This document shows positions 1,144-13,735 of a DNA stretch of 13,735 bases, one piece after another. Numbering within the stretch: position 1 is the stretch's first letter; each line of letters opens with the position of its first letter. A program made the position numbers and the translations under genes. The stretch spans positions 1 to 13,735 of the forward strand of contig CAXHJY010000904.1 in NCBI GenBank assembly GCA_964016885.1, given 5' to 3'. The notes under the pieces were generated by a model. The model was not told where the DNA came from. It did not search any database and was given only the letters and a program-made list of their open reading frames with translations. Source of the DNA: Eledone cirrhosa (Eukaryota).

Positions 1144-4100
1144 ATAAACGGAAAAAATGAAACGATATTTCATTTCCCACTCTTAGTACGGCTGTTACTT
1201 AAATATAAGTATGTACACGTACATACATATATGTATACCGACGTACAGTAGTATGTATATATATATATACATACATGCACACATATATATATGCACGTAT
1301 GGATTCACCGAACATTTATTATAATGCTCGGTGTGTTTGTAAACAAACATCCCGTATTAAGCCGTAGTGTCTAGCAACCACCGTTGCTCGTTTGTTCAAC
1401 ACTGACAAAGGAACGCTGTACTAGTTTCAAGCTTGTTAGCTATCGTCAGCAACGTATACCTTCCTGCCAGATTGTTGAACGTATATACTTACCTTATGCA
1501 TATTAACGGCTGAGTAGCCCAATATGCATATCGAGTGGGTTAATCGGCCGGGTGCACCGAAAACGATAAACGGAAAAAATGAAACGATATTTCATTTCCC
1601 ACTCTTAGTACGGCTGTTACTTAAATATAAGTATGTACACGTACATACATATATGTATACCGACGTACAGTAGTATGTATATATATATATACATACATGC
1701 ACACATATATATATGCACGTATGGATTCACCGAACATTTATTATAATGCTCGGTGTGTTTGTAAACAAACATCCCGTATTAAGCCGTAGTGTCTAGCAAC
1801 CACCGTTGCTCGTTTGTTCAACACTGACAAAGGAACGCTGTACTAGTTTCAAGCTTGTTAGCTATCGTCAGCAACGTATACCTTCCTGCCAGATTGTTGA
1901 ACGTATATACTTACCTTATGCATATTAACGGCTGAGTAGCCCAATATGCATATCGAGTGGGTTAATCGGCCGGGTGCACCGAAAACGATAAACGGAAAAA
2001 ATGAAACGATATTTCATTTCCCACTCTTAGTACGGCTGTTACTTAAATATAAGTATGTACACGTACATACATATATGTATACCGACGTACAGTAGTATGT
2101 ATATATATATATACATACATGCACACATATATATATGCACGTATGGATTCACCGAACATTTATTATAATGCTCGGTGTGTTTGTAAACAAACATCCCGTA
2201 TTAAGCCGTAGTGTCTAGCAACCACCGTTGCTCGTTTGTTCAACACTGACAAAGGAACGCTGTACTAGTTTCAAGCTTGTTAGCTATCGTCAGCAACGTA
2301 TACCTTCCTGCCAGATTGTTGAACGTATATACTTACCTTATGCATATTAACGGCTGAGTAGCCCAATATGCATATCGAGTGGGTTAATCGGCCGGGTGCA
2401 CCGAAAACGATAAACGGAAAAAATGAAACGATATTTCATTTCCCACTCTTAGTACGGCTGTTACTTAAATATAAGTATGTACACGTACATACATATATGT
2501 ATACCGACGTACAGTAGTATGTATATATATATATACATACATGCACACATATATATATGCACGTATGGATTCACCGAACATTTATTATAATGCTCGGTGT
2601 GTTTGTAAACAAACATCCCGTATTAAGCCGTAGTGTCTAGCAACCACCGTTGCTCGTTTGTTCAACACTGACAAAGGAACGCTGTACTAGTTTCAAGCTT
2701 GTTAGCTATCGTCAGCAACGTATACCTTCCTGCCAGATTGTTGAACGTATATACTTACCTTATGCATATTAACGGCTGAGTAGCCCAATATGCATATCGA
2801 GTGGGTTAATCGGCCGGGTGCACCGAAAACGATAAACGGAAAAAATGAAACGATATTTCATTTCCCACTCTTAGTACGGCTGTTACTTAAATATAAGTAT
2901 GTACACGTACATACATATATGTATACCGACGTACAGTAGTATGTATATATATATATACATACATGCACACATATATATATGCACGTATGGATTCACCGAA
3001 CATTTATTATAATGCTCGGTGTGTTTGTAAACAAACATCCCGTATTAAGCCGTAGTGTCTAGCAACCACCGTTGCTCGTTTGTTCAACACTGACAAAGGA
3101 ACGCTGTACTAGTTTCAAGCTTGTTAGCTATCGTCAGCAACGTATACCTTCCTGCCAGATTGTTGAACGTATATACTTACCTTATGCATATTAACGGCTG
3201 AGTAGCCCAATATGCATATCGAGTGGGTTAATCGGCCGGGTGCACCGAAAACGATAAACGGAAAAAATGAAACGATATTTCATTTCCCACTCTTAGTACG
3301 GCTGTTACTTAAATATAAGTATGTACACGTACATACATATATGTATACCGACGTACAGTAGTATGTATATATATATATACATACATGCACACATATATAT
3401 ATGCACGTATGGATTCACCGAACATTTATTATAATGCTCGGTGTGTTTGTAAACAAACATCCCGTATTAAGCCGTAGTGTCTAGCAACCACCGTTGCTCG
3501 TTTGTTCAACACTGACAAAGGAACGCTGTACTAGTTTCAAGCTTGTTAGCTATCGTCAGCAACGTATACCTTCCTGCCAGATTGTTGAACGTATATACTT
3601 ACCTTATGCATATTAACGGCTGAGTAGCCCAATATGCATATCGAGTGGGTTAATCGGCCGGGTGCACCGAAAACGATAAACGGAAAAAATGAAACGATAT
3701 TTCATTTCCCACTCTTAGTACGGCTGTTACTTAAATATAAGTATGTACACGTACATACATATATGTATACCGACGTACAGTAGTATGTATATATATATAT
3801 ACATACATGCACACATATATATATGCACGTATGGATTCACCGAACATTTATTATAATGCTCGGTGTGTTTGTAAACAAACATCCCGTATTAAGCCGTAGT
3901 GTCTAGCAACCACCGTTGCTCGTTTGTTCAACACTGACAAAGGAACGCTGTACTAGTTTCAAGCTTGTTAGCTATCGTCAGCAACGTATACCTTCCTGCC
4001 AGATTGTTGAACGTATATACTTACCTTATGCATATTAACGGCTGAGTAGCCCAATATGCATATCGAGTGGGTTAATCGGCCGGGTGCACCGAAAACGATA

Positions 4101-6967
4101 AACGGAAAAAATGAAACGATATTTCATTTCCCACTCTTAGTACGGCTGTTACTTAAATATAAGTATGTACACGTACATACATATATGTATACCGACGTAC
4201 AGTAGTATGTATATATATATATACATACATGCACACATATATATATGCACGTATGGATTCACCGAACATTTATTATAATGCTCGGTGTGTTTGTAAACAA
4301 ACATCCCGTATTAAGCCGTAGTGTCTAGCAACCACCGTTGCTCGTTTGTTCAACACTGACAAAGGAACGCTGTACTAGTTTCAAGCTTGTTAGCTATCGT
4401 CAGCAACGTATACCTTCCTGCCAGATTGTTGAACGTATATACTTACCTTATGCATATTAACGGCTGAGTAGCCCAATATGCATATCGAGTGGGTTAATCG
4501 GCCGGGTGCACCGAAAACGATAAACGGAAAAAATGAAACGATATTTCATTTCCCACTCTTAGTACGGCTGTTACTTAAATATAAGTATGTACACGTACAT
4601 ACATATATGTATACCGACGTACAGTAGTATGTATATATATATATACATACATGCACACATATATATATGCACGTATGGATTCACCGAACATTTATTATAA
4701 TGCTCGGTGTGTTTGTAAACAAACATCCCGTATTAAGCCGTAGTGTCTAGCAACCACCGTTGCTCGTTTGTTCAACACTGACAAAGGAACGCTGTACTAG
4801 TTTCAAGCTTGTTAGCTATCGTCAGCAACGTATACCTTCCTGCCAGATTGTTGAACGTATATACTTACCTTATGCATATTAACGGCTGAGTAGCCCAATA
4901 TGCATATCGAGTGGGTTAATCGGCCGGGTGCACCGAAAACGATAAACGGAAAAAATGAAACGATATTTCATTTCCCACTCTTAGTACGGCTGTTACTTAA
5001 ATATAAGTATGTACACGTACATACATATATGTATACCGACGTACAGTAGTATGTATATATATATATACATACATGCACACATATATATATGCACGTATGG
5101 ATTCACCGAACATTTATTATAATGCTCGGTGTGTTTGTAAACAAACATCCCGTATTAAGCCGTAGTGTCTAGCAACCACCGTTGCTCGTTTGTTCAACAC
5201 TGACAAAGGAACGCTGTACTAGTTTCAAGCTTGTTAGCTATCGTCAGCAACGTATACCTTCCTGCCAGATTGTTGAACGTATATACTTACCTTATGCATA
5301 TTAACGGCTGAGTAGCCCAATATGCATATCGAGTGGGTTAATCGGCCGGGTGCACCGAAAACGATAAACGGAAAAAATGAAACGATATTTCATTTCCCAC
5401 TCTTAGTACGGCTGTTACTTAAATATAAGTATGTACACGTACATACATATATGTATACCGACGTACAGTAGTATGTATATATATATATACATACATGCAC
5501 ACATATATATATGCACGTATGGATTCACCGAACATTTATTATAATGCTCGGTGTGTTTGTAAACAAACATCCCGTATTAAGCCGTAGTGTCTAGCAACCA
5601 CCGTTGCTCGTTTGTTCAACACTGACAAAGGAACGCTGTACTAGTTTCAAGCTTGTTAGCTATCGTCAGCAACGTATACCTTCCTGCCAGATTGTTGAAC
5701 GTATATACTTACCTTATGCATATTAACGGCTGAGTAGCCCAATATGCATATCGAGTGGGTTAATCGGCCGGGTGCACCGAAAACGATAAACGGAAAAAAT
5801 GAAACGATATTTCATTTCCCACTCTTAGTACGGCTGTTACTTAAATATAAGTATGTACACGTACATACATATATGTATACCGACGTACAGTAGTATGTAT
5901 ATATATATATATACATACATGCACACATATATATATGCACGTATGGATTCACCGAACATTTATTATAATGCTCGGTGTGTTTGTAAACAAACATCCCGTA
6001 TTAAGCCGTAGTGTCTAGCAACCACCGTTGCTCGTTTGTTCAACACTGACAAAGGAACGCTGTACTAGTTTCAAGCTTGTTAGCTATCGTCAGCAACGTA
6101 TACCTTCCTGCCAGATTGTTGAACGTATATACTTACCTTATGCATATTAACGGCTGAGTAGCCCAATATGCATATCGAGTGGGTTAATCGGCCGGGTGCA
6201 CCGAAAACGATAAACGGAAAAAATGAAACGATATTTCATTTCCCACTCTTAGTACGGCTGTTACTTAAATATAAGTATGTACACGTACATACATATATGT
6301 ATACCGACGTACAGTAGTATGTATATATATATATACATACATGCACACATATATATATGCACGTATGGATTCACCGAACATTTATTATAATGCTCGGTGT
6401 GTTTGTAAACAAACATCCCGTATTAAGCCGTAGTGTCTAGCAACCACCGTTGCTCGTTTGTTCAACACTGACAAAGGAACGCTGTACTAGTTTCAAGCTT
6501 GTTAGCTATCGTCAGCAACGTATACCTTCCTGCCAGATTGTTGAACGTATATACTTACCTTATGCATATTAACGGCTGAGTAGCCCAATATGCATATCGA
6601 GTGGGTTAATCGGCCGGGTGCACCGAAAACGATAAACGGAAAAAATGAAACGATATTTCATTTCCCACTCTTAGTACGGCTGTTACTTAAATATAAGTAT
6701 GTACACGTACATACATATATGTATACCGACGTACAGTAGTATGTATATATATATATACATACATGCACACATATATATATGCACGTATGGATTCACCGAA
6801 CATTTATTATAATGCTCGGTGTGTTTGTAAACAAACATCCCGTATTAAGCCGTAGTGTCTAGCAACCACCGTTGCTCGTTTGTTCAACACTGACAAAGGA
6901 ACGCTGTACTAGTTTCAAGCTTGTTAGCTATCGTCAGCAACGTATACCTTCCTGCCAGATTGTTGAA
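1144..6967 (-). repeat. Tandem array A of a 422-bp hammerhead-containing unit (13 full copies + 336-bp partial); retrozyme-like element, ribozyme sense on the minus strand
   Basis: Unit starts (ATAAACGGAAAAAATG) at 1144, 1566, 1988, 2410, 2832, 3254, 3676, 4098, 4520, 4942, 5364, 5786, 6210, 6632. Period is 422, except copy 12 (424 bp, one extra TA near 5898-5913). No substitutions seen by eye. Confidence 0.97.
1394..1480 (-). ncRNA. Type I hammerhead ribozyme motif (first of 14 minus-strand copies; others start at 1816, 2238, 2660, 3082, 3504, 3926, 4348, 4770, 5192, 5614, 6038, 6460, 6882)
   Basis: Reverse complement reads ACGUUG-CUGACGA-U-AGCU-AACA-AGCU-U-GAAAC-UA-GUA^CAGCGU. Helix I is ACGUUG/CAGCGU and the predicted cleavage falls between 1419 and 1418. 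Confidence 0.85.
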
Positions 6968-9609
6968 TCCATACGTGCATATATATATGTGTGCATATAT
7001 ATATGTGTGCATGTATGTATATATATATATACATACTACTGTACGTCGGTATACATATATGTATGTACGTGTACATACTTATATTTAAGTAACAGCCGTA
7101 CTAAGAGTGGGAAATGAAATATCGTTTCATTTTTTCCGTTTATCGTTTTCGGTGCACCCGGCCGATTAACCCACTCGATATGCATATTGGGCTACTCAGC
7201 CGTTAATATGCATAAGGTAAGTATATACGTTCAACAATCTGGCAGGAAGGTATACGTTGCTGACGATAGCTAACAAGCTTGAAACTAGTACAGCGTTCCT
7301 TTGTCAGTGTTGAACAAACGAGCAACGGTGGTTGCTAGACACTACGGCTTAATACGGGATGTTTGTTTACAAACACACCGAGCATTATAATAAATGTTCG
7401 GTGAATCCATACGTGCATATATATATGTGTGCATGTATGTATATATATATATACATACTACTGTACGTCGGTATACATATATGTATGTACGTGTACATAC
7501 TTATATTTAAGTAACAGCCGTACTAAGAGTGGGAAATGAAATATCGTTTCATTTTTTCCGTTTATCGTTTTCGGTGCACCCGGCCGATTAACCCACTCGA
7601 TATGCATATTGGGCTACTCAGCCGTTAATATGCATAAGGTAAGTATATACGTTCAACAATCTGGCAGGAAGGTATACGTTGCTGACGATAGCTAACAAGC
7701 TTGAAACTAGTACAGCGTTCCTTTGTCAGTGTTGAACAAACGAGCAACGGTGGTTGCTAGACACTACGGCTTAATACGGGATGTTTGTTTACAAACACAC
7801 CGAGCATTATAATAAATGTTCGGTGAATCCATACGTGCATATATATATGTGTGCATGTATGTATATATATATATACATACTACTGTACGTCGGTATACAT
7901 ATATGTATGTACGTGTACATACTTATATTTAAGTAACAGCCGTACTAAGAGTGGGAAATGAAATATCGTTTCATTTTTTCCGTTTATCGTTTTCGGTGCA
8001 CCCGGCCGATTAACCCACTCGATATGCATATTGGGCTACTCAGCCGTTAATATGCATAAGGTAAGTATATACGTTCAACAATCTGGCAGGAAGGTATACG
8101 TTGCTGACGATAGCTAACAAGCTTGAAACTAGTACAGCGTTCCTTTGTCAGTGTTGAACAAACGAGCAACGGTGGTTGCTAGACACTACGGCTTAATACG
8201 GGATGTTTGTTTACAAACACACCGAGCATTATAATAAATGTTCGGTGAATCCATACGTGCATATATATATGTGTGCATGTATGTATATATATATATACAT
8301 ACTACTGTACGTCGGTATACATATATGTATGTACGTGTACATACTTATATTTAAGTAACAGCCGTACTAAGAGTGGGAAATGAAATATCGTTTCATTTTT
8401 TCCGTTTATCGTTTTCGGTGCACCCGGCCGATTAACCCACTCGATATGCATATTGGGCTACTCAGCCGTTAATATGCATAAGGTAAGTATATACGTTCAA
8501 CAATCTGGCAGGAAGGTATACGTTGCTGACGATAGCTAACAAGCTTGAAACTAGTACAGCGTTCCTTTGTCAGTGTTGAACAAACGAGCAACGGTGGTTG
8601 CTAGACACTACGGCTTAATACGGGATGTTTGTTTACAAACACACCGAGCATTATAATAAATGTTCGGTGAATCCATACGTGCATATATATATGTGTGCAT
8701 GTATGTATATATATATATACATACTACTGTACGTCGGTATACATATATGTATGTACGTGTACATACTTATATTTAAGTAACAGCCGTACTAAGAGTGGGA
8801 AATGAAATATCGTTTCATTTTTTCCGTTTATCGTTTTCGGTGCACCCGGCCGATTAACCCACTCGATATGCATATTGGGCTACTCAGCCGTTAATATGCA
8901 TAAGGTAAGTATATACGTTCAACAATCTGGCAGGAAGGTATACGTTGCTGACGATAGCTAACAAGCTTGAAACTAGTACAGCGTTCCTTTGTCAGTGTTG
9001 AACAAACGAGCAACGGTGGTTGCTAGACACTACGGCTTAATACGGGATGTTTGTTTACAAACACACCGAGCATTATAATAAATGTTCGGTGAATCCATAC
9101 GTGCATATATATATGTGTGCATGTATGTATATATATATATACATACTACTGTACGTCGGTATACATATATGTATGTACGTGTACATACTTATATTTAAGT
9201 AACAGCCGTACTAAGAGTGGGAAATGAAATATCGTTTCATTTTTTCCGTTTATCGTTTTCGGTGCACCCGGCCGATTAACCCACTCGATATGCATATTGG
9301 GCTACTCAGCCGTTAATATGCATAAGGTAAGTATATACGTTCAACAATCTGGCAGGAAGGTATACGTTGCTGACGATAGCTAACAAGCTTGAAACTAGTA
9401 CAGCGTTCCTTTGTCAGTGTTGAACAAACGAGCAACGGTGGTTGCTAGACACTACGGCTTAATACGGGATGTTTGTTTACAAACACACCGAGCATTATAA
9501 TAAATGTTCGGTGAATCCATACGTGCATATATATATGTGTGCATGTATGTATATATATATATACATACTACTGTACGTCGGTATACATATATGTATGTAC
9601 GTGTACATA

Positions 9610-9616
<7 letters not shown>
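6964..9616 (+). repeat. Tandem array B: reverse complement of the same 422-bp unit (6 full copies + 105-bp partial); ribozyme sense on the plus strand
   Basis: Marker TGAATCC at 6964, 7402, 7824, 8246, 8668, 9090, 9512. Period is 422; the first interval is 438 because of a 16-bp duplication at 6975-7006. The array ends at ...GTACATACTTATAT (9616). Confidence 0.97.
7229..7315 (+). ncRNA. Type I hammerhead ribozyme motif (first of 6 plus-strand copies; others start at 7651, 8073, 8495, 8917, 9339)
   Basis: Helix I 5' ACGTTG 7254-7259; core CTGACGA 7260-7266; helix II T-AGCT-AACA-AGCT-T 7267-7280; GAAAC 7281-7285; TA; cleavage triplet GTA 7288-7290; helix I 3' CAGCGT 7291-7296. Helix I extends through AAGG/CCTT, CTGGCA/TGTCAG and GTTCAACA/TGTTGAAC. 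Confidence 0.85.
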
Positions 9617-9692
<76 letters not shown>

Positions 9693-9771
9693 ATACATAT
9701 ATATTTATATATATATATATATATGTATGTATATATATATATATATTGATATATATATATATATATGTATG

Positions 9772-9822
<51 letters not shown>

Positions 9823-9897
9823 ATATATATGTATGTATATATATATATATTTATATATATATATATATATGTATGTATATATATTTATATAAATATA
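9617..9897. repeat. Compound (AT)n block, near-copy of the block starting at 10039
   Basis: Shares rare interruptions with the downstream block: TATACATA (C9696 vs C10124) and TATTGATA (G9748 vs G10176). Confidence 0.9.
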
Positions 9898-10038
9898 TTT
9901 ACAAACACACCGAGCATTATAATAAATGTTCGGTGAATCCATACGTGCATATATATATGTGTGCATGTATGTATATATATATATACATACTACTGTACGT
10001 CGGTATACATATATGTATGTACGTGTACATACTTATAT
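9898..10038 (+). repeat. Isolated 141-bp partial copy of the 422-bp unit, without the ribozyme
   Basis: TTTACAAACACACCGAG...GTACATACTTATAT matches 9476-9616. TGAATCC at 9934 is exactly 422 bp after 9512. Confidence 0.95.
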
Positions 10039-13394
<3,356 letters not shown>

Positions 13395-13735
13395 AAATAA
13401 AGTTAAATAAAAGTCAAATGATTAAAATTTAGCTTCGTTTATTACTGCTATATATATTTCAGTGACAGCCATCTCTGGCTGTGACCTCTTCAGGCAGTTT
13501 GAATTAGTATGGTATAGACAAGTACATATGTTGTTTAGGTGTATGATATTGTCAATACTCTGATATGCCCAGTTCCTTGTTGGGTTGTTAATTCACTGGG
13601 GAACTGGAGTCATATGAATTCAAACAAACGAATTTTAGTGTCACAGGTCCCCTTCTCCTCTCATTGGTCAGTTATTAGTGTTGTCATTGTTGGAGTTAGC
13701 TTAAAAATTGATAAAATGGTAGAAGGGACAAGGTG
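13395..13735. other. Unique non-repetitive flank, unassigned (intronic/intergenic-like)
   Basis: AT-rich, with no ORF in the supplied track and no recognisable motif. Confidence 0.5.

Follow-up and report, generated by a model that had tools for sequence, protein, structure and literature searches.

An abundant 422-bp hammerhead repeat of Eledone cirrhosa, a likely non-LTR retrozyme with Penelope-like insertion ends

Introduction

Most metazoan hammerheads are described as having a helix III of 1–2 bp with a 2–4-nt palindromic loop on top, and tandem copies of such hammerheads fold as an active dimer; in small RNA pathogens, dimer folding is held to protect the monomeric circles (PMC4209133, cited here, like the other papers below, from the parts of its text that were available), and the dimer model is repeated in a review (PMC6765202). 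The axolotl provides two instructive examples: HHR_Amex1 has one pair and a palindromic tetraloop, in HHR_Amex2 the base of helix II is a U·U, and their monomers were 6% and 22% cleaved in 1 h, with dimers performing much better (PMC7229834). Newt monomers cleave if the helix I extension is internally looped (PMC6155905). Among Xenopus retrozyme dimers, eight of nine showed no cleavage in vitro and one cleaved (bioRxiv 10.64898/2026.07.22.740005). The G10.1–C11.1 pair is highly conserved, though not absolute (PMC4209133), and a literature search for rate data on mismatches at 10.1/11.1 found nothing relevant.

The 2026 preprint ties retrozymes to Penelope-like elements by co-occurrence and phylogeny, and its available text does not mention tails (bioRxiv 10.64898/2026.07.22.740005). 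Insertions of Penelope-like elements are marked by an inverted 5'-truncated copy, a 30–40-bp tail at one end only, and targeting to (TA)n (PMC8557442). For an element from Anolis, reverse transcription in vitro starts at two internal sites that bound the tail, both DNA strands are extended by the element, which is predicted to be a dimer, and the hammerhead is not needed for insertion in vitro (PMC11167929). In literature titles and abstract openings, subscription papers aside, we found no description of tails or inverted arms of animal retrozymes.

Results

The window analysed here is an entire unplaced contig of 13,735 nucleotides in the 3.0-Gb Eledone cirrhosa assembly; its array copy number may be wrong. 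A type I hammerhead core of 43 nt lies at 7254–7296 on the forward strand, where the original prediction had placed it, and the 43-mer is present 20 times in the window, six times on the plus strand and 14 on the minus. It comprises the 5' strand of a 6-bp helix I (7254–7259), the CUGACGA box (7260–7266), U10.1 (7267), the AGCU-AACA-AGCU of helix II (7268–7279), U11.1 (7280), GAAA (7281–7284), the palindrome ACUAGU of helix III (7284–7289), and the 3' strand of helix I (7291–7296), all on the plus strand; the predicted cut is at GUA/C, between 7290 and 7291, with A17 at 7290. Both peculiarities named in the prediction are thus present in the sequence, the ACUAGU palindrome, whose 6-bp duplex in a double hammerhead is a folding prediction, and the U10.1·U11.1 mismatch (7267–7280, +), which closes the AGCU/AGCU helix II with its AACA loop. 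An equally possible reading of helix III is a single A-U pair closing a CUAG tetraloop, and an amphibian motif has likewise been described as one pair plus a palindromic tetraloop (PMC7229834). The minimum free energy fold of 7229–7320 (−29.6 kcal/mol) predicts an extended helix I with an internal loop adjoining the core (7229–7315, +); this internal loop and the 4-nt loop 2 are predicted by folding, with loop-loop contacts lying outside the scope of the program.

The motif has the features of a type I hammerhead, with a CUGANGA core, GAAA, and an NUH cut site, set around a three-way junction with helix I as its open arm, and it has U·U or, in relatives, C·A where G10.1–C11.1 would be expected. 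It also has those of a dimer-acting hammerhead, namely a 1–2-bp helix III, a 2–4-nt palindromic loop, and tandem copies. The Rfam hammerhead models gave no match at E≤10 on 7215–7400, and in the whole window no hammerhead family was among the 150 listed of 291 matches; the class assignment therefore rests on the core sequence, the folding, and covariation in helix I between subfamilies. Sub-threshold Rfam matches to miRNAs on a TA-rich hairpin were rejected as reflecting composition.

The repeat unit, counted from cut site to cut site, is 422 nt (7291–7712, +) and corresponds to the predicted monomer or circle; unit positions are numbered from 7291. Its circular minimum free energy is −146.0 kcal/mol (z of −9.7 against 60 shuffles). 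The window holds two arms placed head-to-head. The left, inverted arm (1144–6967, −) has 13.8 units and its 3' end at a long fixed site, unit position 275, and the right arm (6991–9616, +) has 6.2 units and its 3' end at a short fixed site, unit position 216; in both, the end is followed by (TA)n. The junction between the arms (6964–6990), known from the assembly alone, has a 4-nt overlap and a 16-nt slippage duplication. Unit positions 217–275, between the two end sites, make up a 59-nt 'tail' (7507–7565, +) that is found at the end of one arm only. TA-rich microsatellite flanks the arms on the left (346–1143, with the motif oriented as in 9620–11600) and on the right (9617–13394, with the orientation flipping near 11600). 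Units in the window are identical except for one 2-nt slip. A 141-bp piece of the unit (positions 76–216) lies inside the microsatellite at 9898–10038, exactly 422 bp past its counterpart in the last unit, and is either a local duplication or a polishing artefact. Among the sequencing runs listed, none of RNA contains the unit; two runs guessed to be RNA match it only in its TA-rich stretch at 7471–7510 and are therefore uninformative on expression.

The repeat is dispersed and abundant. Pattern searches of the genome recovered 1,838 exact 36-nt cores, as opposed to none for a reversed control, and 29,151 cores emerged once the pattern was relaxed with the AGCU helix II retained, of which 24,157 have U·U, an AAYA loop, and ACUAGUA; controls again gave 0 for both. 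Some 1,420 cores have a base other than U at 10.1, and the first 100 of these listed belong mostly to a C·A subfamily with a GUU site, with G-C in none of the 100. A further 523 cores are changed at 15.2; among the first 100 listed, three are palindromic again, each as a single copy. Copies form about 40 clusters over the first 123 Mb of the chromosome-scale contig C1. The window's subfamily and variants of it also occur in contigs under other organism entries (runs X6 and X7; organisms D and E).

Comparison of one unit per locus from 12 loci and the window shows sister subfamily units of 426–538 nt whose identity with the window unit is 77–85% outside the core; the core boxes, AGCU/AGCU, and ACUAGU are kept. 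One sister subfamily (L129–L140) has a 434-nt unit with C10.1·A11.1, a GUU cut triplet, and the same ACUAGU. The helix I pair 7257–7293, a U·G in the window, is G·U and A-U in sister subfamilies, a change on both sides, and the sequence of the helix I extension is similar across all subfamilies. In no subfamily compared is ACUAGU swapped for another palindrome, so that no covariation of the palindrome could be demonstrated within the superfamily. The mismatch at 10.1/11.1 is a stable family trait.

The original prediction regarded the motif as atypical, a description that did not hold up; both traits have been published, and U·U is present in four hammerhead families of the fetched loci, including an autonomous Penelope-like family with 758-codon frames. 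Because of this recurrence, U·U is a common local solution rather than an oddity. Other hammerhead families in the fetched loci have the palindromes ACGCGU, AGUACU, and AUAUAU, and one has a non-palindromic loop; the scan retained loops longer than 4 nt only if these were paired or palindromic, and such loops are hence no evidence. The families with ACGCGU and AGUACU (both with U·U), and one with G-C at 10.1/11.1 together with ACUAGU, are represented at L059, L060, L067, L100, L024, and L141.

Folding bears on whether neighbouring copies act together. In the natural tandem dimer a nested double hammerhead reaches −188.4 kcal/mol; two single active folds reach −172.7 and the free ensemble −192.6. 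The double hammerhead is thus favoured over two single active folds by 15.7 kcal/mol in the window unit, and the preference is 11.6–16.4 kcal/mol in all six sister units; it lies 4.2 kcal/mol above the free ensemble, and the helix III pair probability is about 0.01. For the monomer, the active fold is 7.75 kcal/mol less favourable than the ensemble. Within the isolated monomer and within the circle, the CUG of the core is predicted to pair with the UAG of the palindrome (probabilities of 0.89, 0.89, and 0.70), and this self-block has a probability of at least 0.66 in five of six sister units and is weak, at 0.21, in the C·A unit. Neither core contacts nor loop-loop and tertiary contacts are modelled by the program, which by design also puts a penalty on a lone pair, and these values rank folds rather than activity. 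With that reading, the double hammerhead is predicted to be the cheapest active fold, and the monomer to be damped by the CUG:UAG misfold. The proposal that two adjacent units pair through ACUAGU is therefore supported by modelling, as the arrangement follows a published model, is nested, and is better by 15.7 kcal/mol; it is also backed by a palindrome that is unchanged in subfamilies only 77–85% identical outside the core. The accompanying claim that cleavage needs a multimer is too strong, because axolotl monomers cleave to 6% and 22%, newt monomers with a looped helix I cleave, and our motif is predicted to have such an extension.

We mapped arms in 80 stretches of contig C1 (40 picked by hammerhead core and 40 by 3' end) and in the window. 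Of 154 arm 3' ends, unit position 275 accounts for 76 and position 216 for 59, the other 19 lying elsewhere; the classed ends run into (TA)n. The two fixed sites are 59 nt apart, the short one lies in a predicted hairpin loop, and a genome-wide count gives 3,842 and 1,570 exact matches to the end patterns. The two sites are used one per arm: 40 of 52 head-to-head junctions (counted after removal of one duplicated insertion) are 216/275, none is 216/216 or 275/275, and 12 have an unclassed end. If only loci picked by 3' end are considered, 18 junctions are mixed, none pairs like with like, and seven have an unclassed end. By coordinates alone, all 11 divergent pairs within 10 kb are mixed in the first 85 Mb, and one divergent 216/216 pair is found beyond that among the first 100 short ends listed. 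The same rule holds, as judged by eye, in seven two-arm loci of sister subfamilies. Within an insertion, 107 of 821 diagnostic sites (13%, a value inflated by one site in a TA run) distinguish the two arms, as opposed to 32% between insertions (permutation p 0.0005).

The 5' ends of the arms are scattered, with 4 of 106 within 10 nt of the cut site where 5.3 are expected, and on these numbers we rejected the cut site as a point where insertions terminate or stall. The cut site is crossed by 36 of 62 arms in loci picked by 3' end. Of 40 insertions, 34 have arms that together exceed one unit, and in 24 the cut site is crossed by both arms (half of these loci having been selected for containing a hammerhead); L1-style twin priming on one linear monomer was accordingly discarded. 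Because the arms total more than one unit and cross the cut site, the template is a circle or an uncut multimer rather than a cut linear monomer. An inverted 5'-truncated arm, a one-sided tail, and a microsatellite target are the marks of a Penelope-type insertion, and the insertions described here have all three; their one-of-each end pattern is the Penelope 'tail' signature. We regard this insertion pattern as more informative than the ribozyme traits.

A search for an autonomous partner among 27 Penelope-like loci found none that shares the unit or the tail. The pLTRs of these loci show no similarity to the unit, save for separate retrozyme insertions in L073 and L085, and the arms in 40 loci picked by 3' end map to repeat units, in no case continuing into a frame encoding reverse transcriptase plus GIY-YIG; the repeat is thus not contiguous with such a frame in the manner of an autonomous Penelope-like pLTR. 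The young Penelope-like family with 758-codon frames has a type I hammerhead at the frame start (L073:2689–2800 and 12 other loci), with U10.1·U11.1, a 4-bp helix III whose 8-nt loop contains CUAG, and 4,097 exact cores genome-wide. Among the first 100 of its hammerheads listed there are 14 head-to-head pairs with cores 4–21 bp apart (for example, C1 1116945–1117027 and 18006409–18006490), implying that both arms often begin just before the core. This family is a candidate partner by hammerhead traits only, having no sequence similarity to the unit.

Penelope-type fragments lie at both ends of the window. Positions 1–346 (−), outside the retrozyme, are a fragment of the endonuclease part of a young Penelope-like element and match loci that have 758-codon open frames at about 99% DNA identity; a GIY-YIG match, obtained on the long frame and not on the window fragment, is weak (E of 0.092). 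At the other end, 13394–13735 (−) is the end of a Penelope-type repeat that stops at a TA tract, as do three of its ten relatives while the other seven run on, and that has a separate hammerhead of its own at 13444–13498 (−) with a long helix II and a AUAUAUAU helix III; locus L164 puts a hammerhead of this type about 0.9 kb after a frame end. These fragments are neighbours in the same microsatellite.

Discussion

Beyond the observed motif, dispersed family, conserved core and palindrome, and end rule of two sites, one per arm, we consider it likely that the 422-bp non-coding tandem repeat is a non-LTR retrozyme that depends on transcription, cleavage, circles, and mobilisation in trans, steps that we infer as follows. 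Tandem transcripts are predicted to be cut best when neighbouring copies pair through ACUAGU, and the released monomers would circularise. A Penelope-like reverse transcriptase/endonuclease would then, as seems likely, paste copies into (TA)n tracts in trans, and the two ends of the DNA break would both start synthesis on one and the same RNA species, each from its own fixed site.

Three other accounts deserve consideration. The ribozyme might cleave adequately as a monomer through contacts between loop 2 and the internal loop of helix I, with an inherited palindrome that merely helps. The predicted internally looped extension, similar in sequence in all subfamilies, fits this, as do the newt monomers that cleave with such extensions (PMC6155905) and invertebrate retrozyme monomers cleaved at 0.1–0.8 per min (PMC7229834); however, the active monomer fold lies 7.75 kcal/mol above the ensemble, and amphibian motifs with a one-pair tetraloop or U·U are poor as monomers and much better as dimers (PMC7229834), so that we hold this account to be possible, if somewhat questionable. 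It is doubtful that the ribozyme is slow or dispensable and that an uncut multimeric transcript, not a circle, is the template for insertion. Anolis hammerhead mutants still insert (PMC11167929), eight of nine Xenopus dimers are inactive (bioRxiv 10.64898/2026.07.22.740005), and 36 of 62 arms in loci picked by 3' end cross the cut site freely, although such crossing is equally expected from a circle; moreover, subfamilies that diverge by about 20% elsewhere retain the core boxes and palindrome, a pattern indicative of selection on catalysis.

That the window's arrays arose by local amplification of ordinary satellite DNA, or through a fold-back error in the assembly, seems to us very improbable. 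The window makes up an entire unplaced contig of 13.7 kb, a single 2-nt slip is the one difference among its units, and the 141-bp piece recurs in exact 422 register within the microsatellite, all of which such an origin would accommodate; but the arms end at different sites, according to the rule seen on contig C1, where a fold-back would be symmetric, and some 40 clusters of copies are scattered through the first 123 Mb of C1.

Returning to the retrozyme interpretation, a more speculative extension, which we think unlikely as it stands, is that the palindrome is a two-state switch, in which UAG:CUG pairing locks the monomer circle and pairing with the next copy activates tandem RNA, and a dimeric Penelope enzyme, by rolling-circle reverse transcription, copies the surviving circle simultaneously from both fixed sites, each serving one DNA end. 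If true, this would supply a missing explanation for the survival of animal retrozyme circles, and the predicted CUG:UAG self-block in any case bears on why retrozyme circles escape re-cutting, a question left open in the available text of PMC7229834. That animal retrozymes borrow Penelope enzymes is a proposal so far based on co-occurrence and phylogeny; the strict rule of one short and one long end lends it support, and constrains how Penelope enzymes join both DNA ends. Being young, very abundant, and non-coding, the family is a useful test bed.

How the repeat compares with known systems can be considered at the level of the ribozyme and of the element. With axolotl Amex1 the motif shares one base pair with a palindromic tetraloop on top, and the available description of Amex1 reports no mismatch; with Amex2 it shares U·U at the base of helix II, Amex2 being described as having a 2-bp helix III and a tetraloop (PMC7229834). 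The Eledone motif combines both weak features, in a comparison with the axolotl and newt satellite 2 motifs that is by description only. The Penelope-like pLTRs (PMC4209133, PMC8557442, PMC11167929) share with the Eledone repeat a small palindromic helix III, an inverted 5'-truncated arm, a one-end tail, (TA)n targets, and two internal start sites bounding the tail. The Eledone hammerhead has a canonical 6-bp helix I and 4-bp helix II in contrast to the minimal form of the pLTR, the tail of the repeat is 59 nt rather than 30–40 bp (PMC8557442), and, unlike Penelope-like elements, the repeat has no open reading frame and both of its arms can span many units.

With the metazoan non-LTR retrozymes the repeat shares non-coding tandem units that measure a few hundred bp and each contain one type I hammerhead, a G+C content under 45%, dispersal in forms from partial monomers to long arrays, a highly self-paired predicted circle, and co-occurrence with Penelope-like elements (PMC7229834; bioRxiv 10.64898/2026.07.22.740005). 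Its unit of 422 nt (426–538 nt in sisters) is slightly above the 170–400 nt of Cervera and de la Pena 2020 (PMC7229834) and within the 51–972 bp of Li, Clavereau and Pollet 2026 (bioRxiv 10.64898/2026.07.22.740005). The inverted arms and fixed ends are features of the Eledone repeat that have no description in the available text of these two papers. The ribozyme traits, by comparison, are already in print, and the element, very abundant, is a likely addition to the animal non-LTR retrozymes.
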